In this document: piece after piece, positions 2,761-36,745 of the stretch
Layout of the letters: each line of letters opens with the position of its first letter
Numbering within the stretch: the first letter of the stretch is position 1
Origin: Escherichia phage RCS47
Reading direction: 5' to 3' (one strand)
Sequence record: NC_042128.1
DNA: 64,000 nt
The notes under the pieces: model-generated
The model's input: only the letters and a program-made list of their open reading frames with translations
Told to the model about the DNA's origin: nothing
Databases searched by the model: none
Position numbers and translations under genes: made by a program

Positions 2761-3372
2761 TTAATTTCCTGCTTTCAGTTGCTTAAGACGGCGTTTGAGT
2801 TCGCCATTTCGGGCCTTTTCGTTATTGAGTCGGCCTGTCTCCTTATCCAGCTTCGCCCGCAAATCAGTGATCTGCTGTTGATTGAAAGACACCGAGTTCT
2901 GCGCTGATTTATAAGCGGCAACCACCTGAGCATTCCGCTGTTTTGCCTCTTGCAGGCGCTGAAAGTTGGATTTTACTGCCGGTTTCTTGTCTACCGGATT
3001 GGCAACACGTTTCGCTTTGGCGATCAGTGATTTCTGGAATTTTGCGGAGTTTTTGCGGGCCGCTTGCCCCATGACGGTACCAAGCGTCTTGATATCCGGC
3101 GACTGAGCGTTAGGAATAGCTTTTCCATTCAGCCTCACAGACGATATATCGCCAGTATCGTTTACCTGTATGGCAAGAATTTGTCCGTCGTTAAGAACCA
3201 GCTTTGCGGTTTTAACTTTAACGCCATCTTTCGTTGTTGCGCGGTTGCTGGAGTCAACCTCAATTACCGTAACACCGGTTTTATTGATCGCCGCGATAAG
3301 GGATTTCAGCCCCTTTTCATTAACCTGGTCAAAATCGACCGTTGCATACTTATTTCTCGTCATCTGACACAT
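2761..3372 (-). CDS. hdf: Hdf-like protein (homolog of DarA fragment)
   Basis: 203 aa with internal similarity to the central part of the 639-aa DarA-like protein; coiled-coil C-terminus. Confidence 0.5.
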   Translation of the reverse strand: MCQMTRNKYATVDFDQVNEKGLKSLIAAINKTGVTVIEVDSSNRATTKDGVKVKTAKLVLNDGQILAIQVNDTGDISSVRLNGKAIPNAQSPDIKTLGTVMGQAARKNSAKFQKSLIAKAKRVANPVDKKPAVKSNFQRLQEAKQRNAQVVAAYKSAQNSVSFNQQQITDLRAKLDKETGRLNNEKARNGELKRRLKQLKAGN

Positions 3373-4585: not shown

Positions 4586-5147
4586 ATGCTGATCGGCTAT
4601 GTACGCGTATCAACAAATGAACAAAACACTGCTTTGCAACGAAATGCCCTTGAAAGCGCAGGATGTGAGCTAATTTTTGAGGATAAGGCGAGCGGCAAAC
4701 AGACTGAACGCCCTGGGCTAAAAAAGGTTTTGCGTATGCTTTCCAGAGGTGACACCCTGGTCGTATGGAAGTTAGATCGTCTTGGGCGCAGCATGCGTCA
4801 CTTGGTTGTGCTGGTGGAAGAGCTGCGTGACAGAGGAATTAATTTCCGGAGTCTCACTGACTCTATCGACACCAGTACACCAATGGGGCGCTTTTTCTTT
4901 CACGTAATGGGGGCGCTGGCAGAAATGGAACGTGAGCTTATCGTTGAACGTACACGCGCTGGACGTGATGCAGCTCGCGCAGAAGGTCGTAATAGGTGGG
5001 CGTCGGCCTAAATACCAAGAAGAAACATGGCAGCAAATGCGGCGATTGCTGGAGAATGGCATCCCCCGTAAGCAGGTTGCAATCATCTATGATGTGGCTG
5101 TTTCCACGCTTTATAAGAAGTTTCCGGCGTCGTCATTTCAATCCTAA
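4586..5147 (+). pseudogene. cin: Cin/Gin/Pin/Hin-family serine DNA invertase, interrupted by a +1 frameshift near 4990-4992
   Basis: N-terminal resolvase catalytic domain (MLIGYVRVSTNEQ...) in frame 1 stops at 5011; C-terminal HTH domain (GGRRPK...IPRKQVAIIYDVAVSTLYKK) continues in another frame from ~4980 to 5147; removing one A from AA at 4991-4992 restores ...AEGR-IGGRRPK... Confidence 0.8.
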
Positions 5148-5164
5148 ACCTTGGTTTAAGAGAA
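5139..5164. other. recombination crossover site (cixL/gix-like, 26 bp)
   Basis: caatcctaaacc-tt-ggtttaagagaa: two 12-bp half-sites around a 2-bp core, matching the Hin/Gin/Cin site pattern; overlaps the invertase stop codon. Confidence 0.7.
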
Positions 5165-5297
5165 CTCGGTACCAGCGGTGAAAAGATCCCCCTGTTGAGC
5201 ACGGCTAACACATGGAGTGCGCGCCAGACTTTCAACGGAGGGATCACCGGGGCACTGACAGGGAACGCCGACACCGCGACGAAATTGAAAACAGCAC
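5153..5297. repeat. left inverted repeat of invertible segment
   Basis: near-identical reverse complement of 9013-9157 (encodes ...GEKIPLLSTANTWSARQTFNGGITGALTGNADTATKLKTA in both fiber variants). Confidence 0.85.
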
Positions 5298-6496
5298 GCA
5301 CTATTGGCGGTGTGGCATTTGATGGTACTGCGAATATTAATTTACCTGGTGTTAACGTTGCGGGTAATCAGAATACATCCGGTAACGCGGCTACAGCGAC
5401 CAAGTTGCAGACAGCATGTACTATCAACGGCGTCTCGTTTGATGGTTCTAAAAATATTGAGCTAACGGCGGAAGATTTAAATCTACAGGAATTTATTAAT
5501 AAAGCAAATAATGCCGTTCAGCGTTCAGGCGATATCTTGTCCGGCGGACTTACTTTTGAAAACGGCTCAATCCTTGCCTGGATTCGAAATACTGACTGGG
5601 CAAAGATTGGATTTAAAAATGATGCCGACAGCGACACAGATTCATACATGTGGTTTGAAACAGGCGACAACGGCAATGAATATTTCAAATGGAGAAGCAA
5701 ACAAAGCACCACAACAAAAGACCTGATGAATCTTAAATGGGATGCTTTGTCTGTTCTTGTTAAAGCCCTTTTCAGCAGTGAAGTAAAAATATCGACAGTC
5801 AATGCACTGAGGATATTTAATTCATCTTTTGGTGCCATTTTTCGCCGTTCTGAAGAATGCCTGCATATCATCCCTACACGAGAGAATGAGGGGGAAAATG
5901 GTGATATAGGGCCACTACGTCCCTTTACGCTTAATCTCAGAACTGGCCGCATAACTATGGGGCATGGTCTGGATGTTACAGGAGATATAACAACTAACGC
6001 CTGGGTGTATGCAAACAGGTTTGCTATTAATAGTGGCTCAACCTCATGGATTGATATGCGAAACCAGAATGTCATTTTTGGTAGAAACGCAGTATCAACA
6101 AGTTCTGCGCAGGCTTTGTTAAGACAAGACCATGCAGAACGCAAATTTTTTGTCGGTGGACTTGGTAACTACCAGTTTGGTTTTTACATGATTAATAACT
6201 CAAGGACAGCCAATGGCACCGATGGTCAGGCGTACATGGATAATAACGGTAACTGGCTTTGTGGCTCGCAAGTTATTCCTGGCAACTATGGCAATTTTGA
6301 TTCCAGATATGTGAGAGATGTTCGCCTGGGTACGCGAGTTGTTCAATTGATGGCGCGTGGTGGTCGTTATGAAAAAGCCGGACACGTAATTACCGGATTA
6401 AGAATCATTGGTGAAGTAGATGGCGATGATGAAGCCATCTTCAGGCCAATACAAAAATACATCAATGGCACATGGTATAACGTCGCACAGGTGTAA
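5153..6496 (+). CDS. alternative tail-fiber C-terminal variable segment (Sv'), no independent start; expressed only after inversion
   Basis: open frame runs from the crossover site through the inverted repeat; shares N-terminal ~45 aa with the fiber currently fused in the - orientation, then diverges. Confidence 0.65.
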   Translation, partial: GLRELGTSGEKIPLLSTANTWSARQTFNGGITGALTGNADTATKLKTARTIGGVAFDGTANINLPGVNVAGNQNTSGNAATATKLQTACTINGVSFDGSKNIELTAEDLNLQEFINKANNAVQRSGDILSGGLTFENGSILAWIRNTDWAKIGFKNDADSDTDSYMWFETGDNGNEYFKWRSKQSTTTKDLMNLKWDALSVLVKALFSSEVKISTVNALRIFNSSFGAIFRRSEECLHIIPTRENEGENGDIGPLRPFTLNLRTGRITMGHGLDVTGDITTNAWVYANRFAINSGSTSWIDMRNQNVIFGRNAVSTSSAQALLRQDHAERKFFVGGLGNYQFGFYMINNSRTANGTDGQAYMDNNGNWLCGSQVIPGNYGNFDSRYVRDVRLGTRVVQLMARGGRYEKAGHVITGLRIIGEVDGDDEAIFRPIQKYINGTWYNVAQV

Positions 6497-7027
6497 ATGA
6501 TGCAGCATTTAAAAAATATTAAGTCTGGAAATCCTAAAACGAAAGAACAATATCAGCTAACAAAGAATTTTGATGTTATCTGGTTATGGTCCGAAGACGA
6601 TAAAAACTGGTATGAGGAAGTGAAAAACTTTCAGCCAGACACAATAAAGATTGTTTACGATGCAAATAATATTATTGTCGCCATCACTAAAGATGCCTCC
6701 ACGCTTAACCCTGAAGGTTTTAGCGTCGTTGAGGTTCCTGATATTACAGCCAACCGCCGCGCTGATGATTCAGGAAAGTGGATGTTTAAGGATGGAGCTG
6801 TAGTTAAACGGATTTATACGGCAGACGAACAGCAACAACAGGCCGAATCACAAAAGGCCGCATTGCTTTCCGAAGCTGAATCAGTCATCCAGCCGCTGGA
6901 ACGCGCTGTCAGGCTGAATATGGCAACAGACGAGGAACGCACACGACTGGAAGCATGGGAACGCTACAGTGTTCTGGTCAGCCGTGTGGATACGGCAAAT
7001 CCTGAATGGCCACAAAAGCCTGAATAA
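6497..7027 (+). CDS. tail fiber assembly protein (alternative, U')
   Basis: 176 aa; N-terminus [23 protein letters not shown]..., paralog of the 177-aa protein on the opposite strand; typical Tfa chaperone. Confidence 0.8.
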
Positions 7028-7056
7028 AAATTAAGGCCCGCTATCGGGCCTTGTCT
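7028..7056. terminator. bidirectional rho-independent terminator between convergent tfa genes
   Basis: hairpin aaggcccg-ctat-cgggcctt with flanking A/T runs. Confidence 0.5.
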
Positions 7057-7589
7057 CATTCAGGTTGTTCGGGAAATGTTACTGGCAGGCTGGAGGTGTC
7101 TGTAGATTCGACTTTCTGCGCATAGAGCATCCACTCAGTTAATTTTTGTTTATTCTCGTCGGAAATGATGCCCAGCCGTAGCTGTGAGTCCCATAGCTGG
7201 GTTTTATCCCTGACAAGTTGCAACAGGCTTTGTTTTTCATTCTCTGCCTGCTGCCTTTGTTCCTCCTCGGTATAAGTTCGCTTTATCACTACGCCATCTT
7301 TGAACATCCATTTACCCGAAATATCAGCCCGGCGATTTGCTGTAATATCAGGAACCTCAACGACGCTTGCGCCTTCTGGATTAATTGCTGAAACATCCTT
7401 TTCAATACAAATAATAACGTCGTTGTGGTCATAGACCATTTTCAACGTATCAGGCTGAAAGTTCTTTTGTTCCTCATACCAGTTTTTCCCATCCTCTGTA
7501 TAAAGCCATTTGATGTTAAATTGTTTCGTTAGCTGGTATTGCTCTTTTGTTTTAGGGTTGCCAGCAGTAATGTTTTTTAAGTGCATCAT
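7056..7589 (-). CDS. tail fiber assembly protein (U)
   Basis: 177 aa Tfa-family chaperone immediately downstream of the expressed tail fiber. Confidence 0.8.
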   Translation of the reverse strand: MMHLKNITAGNPKTKEQYQLTKQFNIKWLYTEDGKNWYEEQKNFQPDTLKMVYDHNDVIICIEKDVSAINPEGASVVEVPDITANRRADISGKWMFKDGVVIKRTYTEEEQRQQAENEKQSLLQLVRDKTQLWDSQLRLGIISDENKQKLTEWMLYAQKVESTDTSSLPVTFPEQPE

Positions 7590-7591
7590 CG

Positions 7592-24120: not shown

Positions 24121-25560
24121 TGGAGTCACCTGGCGTTTTCAGCGAAAAACCGCCGAGAACCCTCGCCCAATGCGGGCGGGGAGGAAAGGCGGAAAAGCCC
24201 GAAGGGCTTTAAAAATATTATTACGGTGTTAGCATAAAAACCTGTACCAATGAGCGGTGACTATGTTAAGAGCAACAAAAGTACGCATCTACCCGACACC
24301 AGAACAGGCTGAATTTATCAACGCCCAGTTCGGTGCAGTGCGTTTTGTGTACAACAAAGCTCTGCATATCAAGAAACATTCTTACCAGCGGCACCGCGTA
24401 AATTTAAACCCGCGTAAAGACCTCAAACCACTGCTTGCAGTGGCGAAGAAATCCCGCCGGTATGGATGGCTTAAAGAATATGATTCTATTGCGTTGCAGC
24501 AGGCGGTAATTAACCTCGACGTGGCTTTTTCTAACTTTTTCAATCCGAAACTGAAAGCAGGTAAACCTACCTTTAAAAGTAAACACGGCAGACAATCTAG
24601 CTATCATTGTGTTGGCATAAAAGTCCTTGATGGTGCGATAAAAATACCGAAAATCTTGCCGATTGAAGCGCGTTTACATCGTGAAATTACGGGAATGCTG
24701 AAAAGTATCACGTTGAGCCGCAGCGCAACCGGGAAATACTACGCGTCGTTACTCTGTGACGACGGGATGGAAGCGCCGGCAAAGCCCGCACTGATATCAA
24801 ATGTGACAGGGCTGGATATGGGGCTGGCGCATTTTGTCATCAAATCGGACGGCAATAAAATTGCCAGTCCCCGCCACCTAATCAATGCAAGTCGCAACCT
24901 GCGCCGGAAGCAGAAAGCACTGTCCCGTAAGAAAAAAGGGAGCGCAAACAGGCGCAAAGCCAGAATACAACTTGCAGCCGTTCACGAACGGGTAGCCAGT
25001 GCCCGTGCCGATTTCCAGCACAAGTTATCTCGCGCAATTGTTGACGAAAACCAAGCGGTAATTGTCGAAACATTGAAAACGGCAAATATGATGAAAAATC
25101 ACCATCTGGCTCGTGCGATAGGCGATGCTGGATGGTCTGGATTCATCACAAAACTGGAATACAAAGCAACAGAGAAAGGTGTGCATCTGGTGAAACTGGA
25201 TCAATGGTTCGCCAGTTCGAAAACCTGCCACTGCTGCGGTCACAAAATGTCGGAGATGCCATTACATAAGCGCATCTGGCAGTGTCCAGAGTGTGGAGTT
25301 GAACATGACCGCGATATCAATGCGGCGCTCAACATCAAACGCAAGGGCATACTGGAATTACAAGCGGCGGGACTCGTCGTTTCTGCCCATGGAGGCCAGC
25401 GTAAATCCGTCACACAGACGGTTGCGGCTTAAGAAGTGGGAAGCCTCGCCCGACAGGGCGGGGAGCAGTCACTATGGATTTTCTTTGGCGCGGTCTGGCC
25501 ATTAGGGGTCATGTTTGCTGCAACGTTTCTTCTGATGTGGATATTCACCCTTCCAGGTGA
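24121..25560 (+). mobile_element. IS200/IS605-family element encoding only TnpB (right boundary uncertain, between ~25470 and ~25770)
   Basis: tnpB flanked by GC-rich subterminal hairpins (ctcgccc..gggcgggg motif on both sides); no tnpA ORF. Confidence 0.7.
24263..25432 (+). CDS. tnpB: TnpB (RNA-guided RuvC-like nuclease of IS200/IS605 family)
   Basis: ~389 aa; N-terminal ...ATKVRIYPTPEQ..., C-terminal zinc finger CHCCGH...CPECG and ...DRDINAALNI; start taken at ATG 24263. Confidence 0.85.
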   Translation: MLRATKVRIYPTPEQAEFINAQFGAVRFVYNKALHIKKHSYQRHRVNLNPRKDLKPLLAVAKKSRRYGWLKEYDSIALQQAVINLDVAFSNFFNPKLKAGKPTFKSKHGRQSSYHCVGIKVLDGAIKIPKILPIEARLHREITGMLKSITLSRSATGKYYASLLCDDGMEAPAKPALISNVTGLDMGLAHFVIKSDGNKIASPRHLINASRNLRRKQKALSRKKKGSANRRKARIQLAAVHERVASARADFQHKLSRAIVDENQAVIVETLKTANMMKNHHLARAIGDAGWSGFITKLEYKATEKGVHLVKLDQWFASSKTCHCCGHKMSEMPLHKRIWQCPECGVEHDRDINAALNIKRKGILELQAAGLVVSAHGGQRKSVTQTVAA

Positions 25561-31984: not shown

Positions 31985-32085
31985 TAAAATCCAAGGTGAA
32001 ATCGTGGCGATTTCACCTTGAAATTTTAGAGTAATTTACTTTAAAAACAGTCAGTTAATAGTGAAATTTGAATGGCGAAAGTTTA
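31985..32085. other. parS: plasmid centromere parS
   Basis: palindrome aaggtgaaatcgtggcgatttcacctt (heptamer ATTTCAC boxes with TCGCCA box) at 31993-32019, AT-rich putative IHF site, second GTGAAAT/TGGCGA arm at 32059-32081; immediately downstream of parB. Confidence 0.8.
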
Positions 32086-33084
32086 AGGCTTCGGCTTTTT
32101 ATCGAGGCTCTTTCTAAGGATATGCCCAATCATCCTGTCGAGTTCTTCCTGTAACTCTTTTGAGAGTCGATTAAACTCATAAGAAAATGCACGGCCTTTC
32201 ACGCGCTTCCTTGCAAAGCGATCCTTGTCCTCAAATTTCCATAATTCAGTAACTACGGACTTATCTTTAGAACCTTTATCCGTGAGTAGTGAGGCTTCCT
32301 TTGTTATCAAGCGCAGGATTTTATTTTTAACTTCATCTTCGGCCATTTCTTCAATGGATAAGATGTCGTTTATTTCCGGGGATATGTTTTGAATAAGCTG
32401 ATCAAACTCTAAATTCTTGTTCCCCATTTCGTCGCCAACAGCACAAAGCGTTTTGTAGTCCGAAAAGGTTAATTCCGACTGCACAGGGAAAAGGGCGACT
32501 AATTCTTCCGGAGCACTCGCTGCCTGGAGAGCACGCGTGACCTTCGCCTGAGACAGCCCTTCTTTGGCTGCAATATCCTTCTGACTCATCCCATCATTTT
32601 TCATTCGCATCAAACGCAGACCTATTTCTCGAATGCTGTGCTGCAATGCTGTCTGAACGTCTTTCGCTAAATTTTGCGCTTCCTGAACGCTGATCTCCTG
32701 GTCCGTGACTAAAACCCGCAACCCTACGTTCTCTAAGATGGCAGAAGCTCGACGCCGGGAACCATCCAAAATTTCAATTTTCCCTGTAGCCCGTCTGACA
32801 CCTATTGCAGGGTAAAATTGCTGATGCTTAATAGTGCTTCGGATACTTTTTAATGATTTTGGCGTAAGAGATGCCTGGTCACGCCCGTTGTTATGCTGAT
32901 CAACAAAGGTATCGCTTTCTACCTGGTTCGGAGGTATTACCTCTTCAATAAATGTGGCCTGGCGACCAGTTGATAACTTGAATACCTGCTCGACTCGATC
33001 GCCAGAGGCTGAAGAACTATCAAATCCGCTTAATATTGAAGGATTAAGGGTTCGCCCAATTGTTGGTCTGTTTTTCTTTGACAT
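32083..33084 (-). CDS. parB: partition protein ParB
   Basis: 333 aa; HTH ParB family; adjacent to parA and parS. Confidence 0.85.
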   Translation of the reverse strand: MSKKNRPTIGRTLNPSILSGFDSSSASGDRVEQVFKLSTGRQATFIEEVIPPNQVESDTFVDQHNNGRDQASLTPKSLKSIRSTIKHQQFYPAIGVRRATGKIEILDGSRRRASAILENVGLRVLVTDQEISVQEAQNLAKDVQTALQHSIREIGLRLMRMKNDGMSQKDIAAKEGLSQAKVTRALQAASAPEELVALFPVQSELTFSDYKTLCAVGDEMGNKNLEFDQLIQNISPEINDILSIEEMAEDEVKNKILRLITKEASLLTDKGSKDKSVVTELWKFEDKDRFARKRVKGRAFSYEFNRLSKELQEELDRMIGHILRKSLDKKPKP

Positions 33085-33100
33085 GGGGGTTTCTTACTCC

Positions 33101-34297
33101 TCAGTTAGATCTGATAAATTCAATACGGTCAAAAACTGCTTTAGCAAAATCTTCCGCGGCAATTCGCGCGTTCTTCAATGCATCAGCACTACCAACATAC
33201 GTTGCCGGGTTAGCTGAAATAACAGTGTCAAAAGACTCGCCGCAGCGTTCAAAACCGTCAAGGCGAGGGAGGACGACATCAAGCATATCCCCACCGAACA
33301 CTTCTTTAGCCAGGCTATGGCAATACTTATGGTCTGCCTTGTTACTCAACTTGGACATAAAACCAATGTTAGTCGCAAGCTGGCACTCGCAGCCTTCATC
33401 CGAAATGAGTTTTACCAACTCAGGAAGGCGGGCAACGTATTTAAGCGATGAGTGGAAATCAACCGTTGCAGGCGGCAGAGGTGTAAACAGTATATTGGCC
33501 GAGGCCAAAGCATTTTTCAGGAAGGCGTCAAGGTGAGGACCACTATCAACGAGGATAAAGTCATAATCGCTCTTCAGCTTATCAATCACATTTTCTTTCA
33601 GGACTGCATGGATGTTTTGACCCGGTAGATGCTCATTGCACAGCTCTCTCCAATCGGATGCAATAAAGGCATCGTCAATCGACGCAGGCATAACGTCAAC
33701 CCCAGGTACAACAGAAGGAACAATAAACTCCTCTAACAGCTCTTCACGGCTTACATTCTGCAACATAGCCTGTGCAGATGTTGCGTTTACGATACCAATA
33801 GAGTGTTTATGGCTTAAAAACATCGTTGCTGAAGATTGCGGATCAAGGTCAATAACCAGAATCCTTAAATCTTCCATCAGAAGATGAGGGTGAGCACGCA
33901 TTGCATGCGCCAGAGAAACCGTCGATACAGTTTTTGACACACCGCCTTTAAGATTGGAGATGAAAATCACATACGCTTCGCTGTAGCGATCCCGGTATTT
34001 TGGCACTCCGCGATGTTCATATATGTCAATGATGTTCTGAATTGACATCGCATATTTCATTGAAGAGCCAGCAGGGCGTTTATCGAAAACATAACCCTTT
34101 TCTTCCATTTCACTCACGGCATAGTCAACGTTCGCTCGAGTCAGTAGAGGCAATTTTGCCAGTGCCGCTTTCGCATAGACCTGGTAAAACTCGTTCGCGT
34201 GTAGCTCATCCTTTTGCAACTGTACTTGTTCAGTCAGAACATTGAGCATTCTGTTTGCTCTTTGAGCAACCTTGTGAAGCTGGCTGGAATCACTCAT
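33101..34297 (-). CDS. parA: partition ATPase ParA (type Ia, with N-terminal DNA-binding extension)
   Basis: 398 aa; deviant Walker A KGGVSKT. Confidence 0.9.
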   Translation of the reverse strand: MSDSSQLHKVAQRANRMLNVLTEQVQLQKDELHANEFYQVYAKAALAKLPLLTRANVDYAVSEMEEKGYVFDKRPAGSSMKYAMSIQNIIDIYEHRGVPKYRDRYSEAYVIFISNLKGGVSKTVSTVSLAHAMRAHPHLLMEDLRILVIDLDPQSSATMFLSHKHSIGIVNATSAQAMLQNVSREELLEEFIVPSVVPGVDVMPASIDDAFIASDWRELCNEHLPGQNIHAVLKENVIDKLKSDYDFILVDSGPHLDAFLKNALASANILFTPLPPATVDFHSSLKYVARLPELVKLISDEGCECQLATNIGFMSKLSNKADHKYCHSLAKEVFGGDMLDVVLPRLDGFERCGESFDTVISANPATYVGSADALKNARIAAEDFAKAVFDRIEFIRSN

Positions 34298-34366
34298 CGA
34301 AAGCCATCCTTTATGCTGTATTTTTGAATTTAATTAAAAATGCTGCATAAAATAATAATGTATGCG

Positions 34367-34383
34367 TAGATGCTTGTACATAG
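34367..34383. promoter_or_regulatory. candidate parA operator palindrome
   Basis: atgct-tgtaca-t-agcat near-palindrome in the parA promoter region. Confidence 0.3.
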
Positions 34384-34434
34384 CATTCTCTGCATGTTTG
34401 GTTCATTTTGCACGATTGAGAGTTACAAGGAGGG

Positions 34435-34460
34435 CACAAAAAAGCCCCGTTCAGGGGCAT
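34435..34460 (-). terminator. rho-independent terminator after the T5orf172 gene
   Basis: - strand hairpin gcccctgaacggggc followed by TTTTTTGTG. Confidence 0.6.
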
Positions 34461-34465
34461 CAGTG

Positions 34466-35275
34466 TTATTTGCTAAGAGCAGCGAATAATCGTTCGAAAT
34501 CGATAGTATCTATGGCACGCGTAAGCGCCGGAAGTTCAGCCTCAAAGTACCCGTGTCGATCGTAAAAGAAGGGACCGAAGAGCGAGGCATGTTGGATTCT
34601 ACTTCGCCCCAGCCCGGACACACAGTTAAGCCCATTACCGGCTAAAAGGCTAAAAAACTTCTCTGGATTATCGTGGTAAAGCTGGGAATCAATGGTGGCG
34701 GTTAACTCTTCCATAGGGAAGCACACCCGCCTTGTCTCCCAGGAATATTTAGTCCGAAGCATAAACATTGCTTTCAGCAATTCACATTGAGCGCGGATCG
34801 CGTCCGGTTCATAGCCAGATATGGAGACATAAGCCACGTCCCTCATTCCTGCGTCATCTTTGAAAGTCACGATAGAAGTAACATCCAGCTCTTTTTCGAA
34901 AGAGCGGGCAGCATCTACTGGACGCTGAAGTAAATCATTCGACTTAATGCGCTCGAGAATCCCTCCCCACATATCATTTAGATATTCGATATGAGCCAAA
35001 ACCTTATCAAGACACTCTCGTGTAAACCATTCAGTATGCCCGCCACCAGCGCTTTTCTCCCACGGCGCATTCCAGGGGAAAAAGGTTGCGTGTAAAGCCC
35101 GCTCAAGATTAACTATTGCCAAACGCGTACCACGATAGACCCGTGAAAGCGCAAAATCGGGACTCACTTGTAGCCCTTTAAACCGTGCCAATGGACCACA
35201 TGAAATGCCGATTTTAAAAGTATCTCCATTCTCCGGCACCAGAACGTAGAGGTAGTGTTGTTTCTCTTCTTGCAT
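34466..35275 (-). CDS. T5orf172 (GIY-YIG-like) domain protein with uncharacterised C-terminal domain
   Basis: 269 aa; N-terminus HYLYVLV...FKIGIS...R...E..LH..F...GGGHTEWF matches T5orf172/MUG113 signature including the EWF motif. Confidence 0.6.
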   Translation of the reverse strand: MQEEKQHYLYVLVPENGDTFKIGISCGPLARFKGLQVSPDFALSRVYRGTRLAIVNLERALHATFFPWNAPWEKSAGGGHTEWFTRECLDKVLAHIEYLNDMWGGILERIKSNDLLQRPVDAARSFEKELDVTSIVTFKDDAGMRDVAYVSISGYEPDAIRAQCELLKAMFMLRTKYSWETRRVCFPMEELTATIDSQLYHDNPEKFFSLLAGNGLNCVSGLGRSRIQHASLFGPFFYDRHGYFEAELPALTRAIDTIDFERLFAALSK

Positions 35276-35309
35276 ATCAATACCACTGCTTGATGAGAAC
35301 CGCGCAAAT

Positions 35310-35566
35310 GTTGACTATGCGCGAAAGTTAATGTGAATAGTTGACTATGCGCGATGTGACTACAGTCAAAAGTTGACTGTAGTCGATTTAACTCCACCAA
35401 AGATCGACTATGTAAGATATTGTCGGGAGAAACGTTGACTATACGCGATGAAATGACCCTAAAAGCCATCTCAATAGCAACTTGCAGAATATTGACGCCA
35501 GCAAAAATCCACCAGCGTCAACGAATGTCGCCTATAGTCAACTTCTCGCTATCGCATATAGTCAAT
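35310..35566. repeat. incA-like iteron array (copy-number control)
   Basis: at least 8 copies of TTGACTATRCGCGA-like repeats in both orientations between repA and parA. Confidence 0.6.
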
Positions 35567-35567
35567 A

Positions 35568-36452
35568 TTATGGATTGCGCTTATGGATCTGGAAGCCGAT
35601 TTTCCTGCCGTTTTTTATTTCTGAAAATTTAAGATATTCAATAGCTTCCAAATCTTTCATGGCTTTTCTGATAACGCTATTTTGCACGCTAACGGATGAT
35701 TTGAGATTAAGCCTTGCTCTAAGGCGCTCAATGCTGACAGGTGCCGGGTTGGCGGGTAGAGCCTCAAAGAATGTATACAGTACCTTGGCCGTCTCTTTGC
35801 GCCCGAGCTTATCCAGCATCTTCAGCTTCAGGATTCGCTTATAGTCAACATAGTAAAGTTCAGATAGCTGTTTCTGCGGCTGGATCTCGATAACATCAAG
35901 CTCAGTATTCAGGCTGCTATATGCCAACAAGTTGACGTTAATGTTATTGAGATGACCTTTTGCCGCCGGGAAGCGGAATTTGACAACTGTCTGCTGAATG
36001 CGTGTCAGAGAGTCATCAATACTTTTACGGAACGCCTTTGAAAGGCGCTTACGTGGATAGCCGCATCGATCGGCAAACTCGGAGAATGGCAGGGTGATTA
36101 TGCCGTCATCATCAGGAGCATAGTCAAACAACGCGGAGGTTATGCCCACCCACACCTTAAAATCAGTATCCATATCCAGGCGTGGACCATGAATTTCAAT
36201 TCCCTCATAGCCTTCCTGCTCAACAATTTTGAGGCTTGATAGTTCTTCGGTTGCGTTCGTTGTGTTTGTTGTAACTGACGATCCGCGACGTAGCGCCACA
36301 TTGGTAGATTTTAAGGTTGGCACAAACACACCTAAGCGCAACAAAGCTATGGGTTGTATAGTGCTGTTGTTATTGGGCTTCAGGCTGTGGATTTCTCCTG
36401 TATTTCCTGCAACTTCTTCAACGCTAAGGAAGCCTTTACTTTCTTCCGGCAT
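35568..36452 (-). CDS. repA: plasmid replication initiator RepA (iteron-binding)
   Basis: 294 aa flanked by iteron arrays on both sides. Confidence 0.75.
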   Translation of the reverse strand: MPEESKGFLSVEEVAGNTGEIHSLKPNNNSTIQPIALLRLGVFVPTLKSTNVALRRGSSVTTNTTNATEELSSLKIVEQEGYEGIEIHGPRLDMDTDFKVWVGITSALFDYAPDDDGIITLPFSEFADRCGYPRKRLSKAFRKSIDDSLTRIQQTVVKFRFPAAKGHLNNINVNLLAYSSLNTELDVIEIQPQKQLSELYYVDYKRILKLKMLDKLGRKETAKVLYTFFEALPANPAPVSIERLRARLNLKSSVSVQNSVIRKAMKDLEAIEYLKFSEIKNGRKIGFQIHKRNP

Positions 36453-36527
36453 CGTGGTTTCTCCATGTGTGGCGCGGCCTGGCGTTAATTTAGATGACTG
36501 TTATCAACAGCTGTGAATATTCAGGCT

Positions 36528-36745
36528 CTAAAATCGCGTACAGTCAACGTTTCTGTCGCGTATAGTCAACAATAAATCGCGTGCAGTCAACATAAAATCG
36601 CACACAGTCAACATAAAATCGCGTATAGTCAATGTTGATCCCGTTTCAGGCCATGAACGGCGCGGCTTACAGCGATCCGGGATCTTCTTTGGATCTTCCT
36701 AGGTTCTCTTTGGGATCTGTTTATTGGATCTATGCTGTGGATAAG
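36528..36745. other. plasmid origin oriR: 5 direct iterons (incC), 5 GATC sites, DnaA box
   Basis: five ~19-bp direct repeats (a/t)aaatcgcRtRcagtcaac at 36530-36633 with ~21-bp periodicity; GATC at 36674, 36681, 36692, 36714, 36727; perfect DnaA box tgtggataa at 36736-36744. Confidence 0.75.

Follow-up and report, generated by a model that had tools for sequence, protein, structure and literature searches.

The host-range switch of the phages P1 and P7 is a textbook system, in which the invertase Cin acts on the C segment. Members of its family, the Din family of serine invertases, have an N-terminal resolvase-type catalytic domain with a nucleophilic serine (Ser9 in Cin and Gin) and, on the same polypeptide, an arm and an HTH domain; they act on an adjacent segment that inverts between inverted crossover sites with a 2-bp core, with a recombinational enhancer in cis. 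Gin of phage Mu follows the same domain plan as Cin (catalytic core, helix E, GGR(R/P)PK arm, and HTH) in one polypeptide. The invertases are to some extent exchangeable, complementation of Cin by Gin, Pin, and Hin being known from the literature of the 1980s. Likewise, PinE inverts the H region of Salmonella and the G segment of Mu, Fin acts on the H segment, and the P segment of e14 is inverted by PinQ, PinR, and PinE alike (PMC12529663). Truncated cin genes have been reported in the P1-like plasmids pSvP1 (MN510446) and pTZ20_1P, where switching is presumed to be lost (Venturini et al., 2019; PMC6906374); the gene in pSvP1, a plasmid with an IS609-like insertion, is described as a 'partial invertase orf [N-catalytic domain]' (PMC6906374).

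The stretch of DNA analysed here, 64,000 nt of Escherichia phage RCS47 and referred to as the window, is on the basis of its sequence a P1/P7-type plasmid-prophage (Punavirus). A 901-nt query around cin (cin, lydC, and Sv′) has 99.8 % nucleotide identity with phage P7 (AF503408), and collinear blastn blocks against P7 cover about 50 of the 64 kb at 96.7-98.5 % identity; elements of this type are recognised by synteny and high nucleotide identity with P1 or P7 over the modules for lysis, tail, immunity, replication, and head. The nearest plasmids are IncY phage-plasmids from E. coli, with identities up to about 98.6 %. The element is therefore a distinct natural relative and not P7 itself; its backbone is only about 97-98.5 % identical to P7, and there are parts without any P7 alignment. 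The features of the switch region are as follows.

4586-4990, plus strand: 5′ part of cin, encoding the catalytic domain and helix E, Cin residues 1-135, with catalytic Ser9 (PF00239; tblastn).
4604-4671, plus strand: recombinational enhancer within the 5′ part of cin (68/68 nt identical to the feature in P7 AF503408).
4965, plus strand: private substitution T to G, changing CTT to CGT, Leu127Arg in helix E (alignment with P7 and P1).
4991-4992, plus strand: AA in place of the one A of P7, P1, and every relative surveyed, a +1 frameshift (alignment).
4992-5147, plus strand: 3′ part of cin, encoding the minor-groove arm IGGRRPK and the HTH, residues 136-186 and stop, out of frame (PF02796; tblastn).
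5141-5160, plus strand: cixL, overlapping the cin stop codon, with its crossover at 5151/5152 (identical to the annotated cixL of P7).
5141-5338 and 8972-9169: arms of the inverted repeat (inverted-repeat search).
5152-9158, no strand: invertible C segment (P7 annotation by alignment; ORFs; inverted repeats).
5152-6496, plus strand: Sv′, part of the C segment.
6497-7027, plus strand: U′, part of the C segment.
7056-7589, minus strand: U, an intact 177-aa ORF, part of the C segment.
7592-9158, minus strand: Sv, part of the C segment.
9141-9180, no strand: cixR region inside gene S, with its crossover at 9158/9159 (40/40 nt identical to the cixR region of P7).
7592-10519, minus strand: tail-fibre gene S, 975 aa, in the expressed configuration of Sc (9159-10519) plus Sv (7592-9158), then U (ORF list; P7 annotation).

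The gene order lydC, cin, cixL, Sv′, U′, U, Sv, cixR, Sc, R is common to the window, P7, and P1, and the enhancer, cixL, and cixR are identical to those of P7. Cin, however, is unsplit and has Leu127 in P7 and P1, whereas in the window the inserted A splits it after residue 135 and residue 127 is Arg. It had been predicted that the catalytic domain is read in frame 1 as far as 5011 and the HTH in another frame up to 5147, and this is confirmed by Pfam, the ORFs, and tblastn. The ORF at 4586-5011 (141 aa) contains a Resolvase domain (PF00239, E 8e-51, residues 3-135), with the nucleophilic Ser9 of the family and a MLIGYVRVST motif identical to that of Gin and P7 Cin, and it ends in an out-of-frame tail, NRWASA, before the TAA at 5009-5011. 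The HTH_7 domain (PF02796, E 6e-19) is read from the following frame, in the ORF at 4932-5147. When P7 Cin is the tblastn query, residues 1-135 map to 4586-4990 with one mismatch (99.3 % identical) and residues 136-186 to 4992-5144 (100 % identical), shifted by one frame.

Base-level alignment with P7 (AF503408) and P1 (NC_005856) attributes the shift to one inserted A, CGT-ATA becoming CGTAATA, and removal of one A in silico restores a 186-aa protein that is P7 Cin except for L127R; the extra A proposed at 4991-4992 is therefore the cause. This insertion and the T to G change at 4965, which is 26-27 nt upstream of it, are the sole differences from P7 in the gene. Because the catalytic ORF stops at 5011 and the HTH_7 domain lies one frame over, and not on the catalytic polypeptide as in other members of the family, the cin locus is most probably the pseudogene of a family member and, as written, no functional member. 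Of the original prediction, the core is retained, namely that a 1-nt insertion parts the catalytic and DNA-binding domains of the C-segment invertase, but its two explanations, a sequencing error or a locked segment, do not stand as they were put.

The consequence of the truncation can be judged against known structures. The Gin structures 3UJ3 and 4M6F can be aligned with Cin over residues 1-182 without a gap (E 2e-88), and so can the catalytic fragment of gamma-delta resolvase (1GDR and 2RSL; query residues 2-135 against chain residues 3-138). The truncation falls where the 1GDR/2RSL fragment ends, so the catalytic core and helix E are kept and the IGGRRPK arm and HTH are lost. The 141-aa product thus ends equivalently to the isolated gamma-delta catalytic domain (residues 1-140), a laboratory proteolytic product cited here only as an analogue. 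That domain alone does not bind DNA specifically, and a serine-recombinase fragment without its arm and HTH cannot recognise its sites. Truncated Cin should therefore not bind the cix sites and, judging from this domain architecture, cin is most probably non-functional in cis and a pseudogene in the lineage.

Among related invertase loci, 79 of 80 have a single uninterrupted frame, the 80th being cut by the end of its contig, and all 80 have Leu at position 127; broken invertases are thus rare among the relatives, and both private changes are unusual. This position aligns with Leu in Gin and with Arg in gamma-delta resolvase, making the effect of L127R alone uncertain; the substitution may have come as a second hit, or by drift once the gene was inactive.

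Programmed ribosomal frameshifting was considered and rejected. The two-frame arrangement is not conserved, as shown by the 79 of 80 single-frame loci and by 232 of 232 short-query matches without the extra A, and by codon-anticodon rules CGU AAU AGG UGG offers neither a heptamer nor a P-site codon able to re-pair. The earlier observation that there is no obvious slippery heptamer at the site was correct. A separate HTH peptide, started at the internal ATG at 4968, was rejected for want of a convincing ribosome-binding site and because no activity is known for split serine recombinases. A weaker version, in which rare +1 slippage near CGU-AAU-AGG would produce a little full-length Cin (with Ile136Asn and Leu127Arg) and slow inversion, is highly improbable. 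The AGG codon, rare and slow, would be in the A site directly after the insertion, and invertases work at very low concentrations; however, no P-site codon is slippery, tRNA-Asn would be unable to re-pair on AUA, this lineage alone has the arrangement, which is therefore no conserved recoding signal, and L127R strikes a position that is invariant in the relatives. Were such leakage to occur, it would be an accidental, naturally attenuated invertase, tuning host-range switching at a reduced rate.

The frameshift itself is, on the sequence evidence, a real and inherited mutation, and a sequencing error is very unlikely. An exact-protein look-up with the 141-aa product was the sole route by which the allele was found in other contigs, and returned six contigs that encode it exactly (five by the cluster table). 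Because the product has both L127R and the out-of-frame tail, it can come only from this allele. Carriers include the NCBI assembly GCA_965265255.1 (a contig of 93,375 bp) and three Logan assemblies of SRA runs (ERR2205918, SRR21096940, and SRR21096736), and in the DNA of all four contigs fetched both the inserted A and the G of L127R are present. Single-nucleotide differences at window positions 534, 713, and 814 divide the carriers of the broken cin into at least three haplotypes.

The suggestion of a sequencing error, by which the true sequence would have one A and cin would be intact and active, has in its favour that one-base indels are the commonest assembly error and that the allele is so rarely met with. 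A 32-mer with the inserted A had no exact match in the genome, viral, and metagenome contig collections, while the wild-type 31-mer at the site is in 21 viral contigs; a 41-mer with the G of L127R had no match in the genome contig collection. With a 61-mer across the site, 102 of 102 E. coli and 130 of 130 plasmid records align 60 nt to the 61-nt query, and none of the approximately 1,000 records of E. coli genomes and plasmids listed as matches has the length of the query. Even so, error is hardly credible, given that the inserted A occurs together with L127R in four separately assembled datasets, one from NCBI and three from SRA, spread over the different haplotypes. Nor is the site a homopolymer, as had been supposed, a single A having become AA. 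In addition, cin is the one real gene in about 50 kb whose frame is broken by an indel. Other indels relative to P7 are intergenic, in-frame triplets, or gaps in a divergent patch that total a multiple of three, and among 422 stop-to-stop reference ORFs from three relatives cin is the only real gene that is split across frames; two further flags of split ORFs fall on tRNA-bearing or unannotated intergenic DNA.

The remainder of the switch is in good order. The segment lies next to cin between inverted crossover sites with a 2-bp core, as is usual in the family, and an enhancer is present in cis by its identity (4604-4671) to the P7 feature labelled 'putative enhancer of Cin-mediated C-segment inversion', putatively Fis-dependent. 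All four reading frames of the segment (Sv′, U′, U, and Sv) are open, and the silent Sv′/U′ cassette is without decay. The P7 record divides U into Ua and Ub, while in the window the gene is unbroken; the old P7 record may therefore carry a frameshift or an error.

There is evidence that the C segment has inverted since cin was broken. In the 93-kb contig of GCA_965265255.1 cin is broken in the same way and the C segment is inverted relative to the window: past cixL this contig runs into window position 9169 and continues down to 8170, reversed. It agrees with the cin-side flank up to 5147 and with the opposite arm from 5176 at all of the informative positions listed (to 5424). The change of arm between 5147 and 5176 places the exchange in the shared 28-nt block 5148-5175, with the crossover at 5151/5152. 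A contig with the extra A, inverted by an exchange in the cix block, implies at least one inversion of site-specific type since the frameshift. A single inversion by wild-type Cin that lingered when the mutation had just arisen, through phenotypic lag or heteroplasmy, could alone account for the difference between this contig and the window. An exact look-up with the S protein (975 aa) for assemblies in the window orientation returned no record.

The Logan contigs bear on the same question. Logan assemblies are made from a k=31 de Bruijn graph with singleton k-mers dropped (PMC12424806), and the right ends of the three Logan contigs are at 5175, 5177, and 5175. In a simulation at k=31, the unitig leaving cin ends at 5206 if either orientation is present singly, at 5175 if both are present, and at 5177 if the window orientation is accompanied by the reciprocal recombinant junction only. 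The ends simulated for mixed orientations are matched in three of three runs, and the end at 5206 in none. Provided that there is one P1-like element per run, which this inference presupposes, the C segment seems to be heterogeneous in orientation within the sequenced cultures. Together with the comparison of the 93-kb contig and the window, these contig ends point to a segment that inverts at its crossover sites. A minor wild-type cin allele could be hidden by bubble popping in the Logan runs. The left ends of the two SRR contigs are at 3006 and 3125, inside odaE; there are no 31-mer repeats at these positions in the window to explain them, and as repeats are not the cause the runs may be low-coverage or mixed, perhaps with a second related element in the samples.

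These results speak against a dead cin with the C segment frozen in its present orientation (S-U expressed) and a fixed host range, which we regard as unlikely. The product lacks the arm and HTH, tblastn found no second serine invertase within the 64-kb window (about 30 kb of the plasmid lies beyond it), and a truncated cin with presumed loss of switching is known from other P1-like plasmids (PMC6906374); all of this would suit a frozen switch. Against it are the occurrence of this allele beside a segment turned the other way, with its change of arm at cix, the three contigs that end where only mixed orientations predict, and the undecayed silent cassette. A locked orientation with a fixed host range, one of the two readings of the original prediction, is therefore not supported, and the switch is apparently not frozen. 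A broken adjacent invertase does not equate with a frozen switch, since the segment is still found in both orientations.

Inversion without any invertase, through occasional RecA-dependent homologous recombination between the inverted repeats, is less likely still. Two inverted repeats on the flanks of the segment, one of 198 nt (87 % complementary) and one of 129 nt (88 %), would be available for it, but the exchange in the 93-kb contig is in the 28-nt cix block and not in the longer identical block of 44 nt (5177-5220) or elsewhere in the arms. Identical tracts of 28-44 nt are poor substrates for homologous recombination, and a minority orientation visible in three read sets would imply a rate far beyond that of homologous exchange.

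It is probable that, the +1 insertion being genuine and heritable, cin is dead and the C segment is inverted in trans by a related invertase. The sequence of events would be a heritable insertion (A to AA), with the nearby Leu127Arg, in the cin gene of a P7-like host-range switch; translation from the normal start codon would then yield the 141-aa catalytic domain and helix E, which would not bind cix, and the DNA substrates of the switch (cixL, cixR, the enhancer, and both tail-fibre cassettes) are untouched. A related Din-family serine invertase, of Pin, Gin, or Cin type, would flip the C segment in trans, and it might come from a resident prophage of the host or from a transiently co-resident P1-like element. 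PinE, PinQ, and PinR on the P segment of e14 and Fin on the H segment are precedents for inversion by an enzyme whose gene is not next to the segment but at another place in the cell; in those cases the enzymes are known, whereas for the window element action on cix is presumed.

Potential sources of such an enzyme are common, 581 tblastn-confirmed stretches in enterobacterial viral contigs encoding Cin relatives; those below 90 % identity are, among the matches listed, mostly 82-87 % identical. No cix-like sites were found just downstream of 58 Pin/Gin-like invertase genes, and a cix-like site is within the 1.5-kb flanks at 6 of these 58 loci. That the lineage has outsourced the switching of its C segment to the invertases of other prophages is a proposal towards which we lean only slightly. 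If true, the host-range variation of the phage would depend on the prophage content of its host.

What has been found is an ordinary pseudogene in a textbook Cin/C-segment system; P1-like plasmids with a broken cin were already on record, and its importance is slight outside this element. What is added is small: evidence of switching that persists despite a broken cin, which fits an emerging picture of prophage invertases acting across elements. In pSvP1 and pTZ20_1P the switch is presumed lost, whereas in the lineage of the window the segment is seen in both orientations. For annotation, the allele should be treated as a true pseudogene and not as an error for polishing. In addition, the end-points of public k=31 contigs can show inversion heterogeneity without reads.

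Several observations concern the rest of the element. The partition and replication region (32027-36659) is DNA without alignment to P7, and the replicon module is therefore a variant other than that of P7. It encodes a Rep3-type initiator at 35568-36452 (weak Pfam hits), a T5orf172-domain protein at 34466-35275, and two par-like ORFs. A TnpB/OrfB-only element of the IS200/IS605 family is at 1-481, the window beginning within its gene; the same element is complete in the 93-kb contig (approximately 525-1896), where TnpB has 382 aa and a Cas12f1-like_TNB domain (E 5e-25). It is inserted directly after TTAT in the 12 nt that separate prt from odaC in the P7 backbone. In some E. albertii plasmids the match begins at window position 1; they may therefore share the insertion. 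By description, the partial cin and IS609-like insertion of pSvP1 resemble the window with its TnpB element; the interruption of sit by IS2 and the large ISEc84 rearrangements of pSvP1, however, are not seen here.

A second TnpB gene (24257-25432, plus strand, 391 aa, with HTH_OrfB_IS605, OrfB_IS605, and TNB domains) shares only 33 % identity with the first; it lies within a 2.4-kb stretch that is in place of the P7 rapA/rapB region, after repL. In sit there is a short patch (14713-14765) strongly divergent from P7, whose ten small insertions add up to 30 nt and so keep the frame; the patch looks like a mosaic replacement within this injection transglycosylase gene. An accessory gene for an SPFH/Band 7 family protein (45509-46336, plus strand, E 1e-30) lies between the tRNA region and ban, in a stretch missing from P7 and present in plasmid NZ_CP031351. 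Homopolymer lengths differ from P7 at 18683, 22273, 43737, and 43876 (C5 rather than C7, an A-run one shorter, T6 rather than T8, and A7 rather than A6), and all four of these positions are intergenic.
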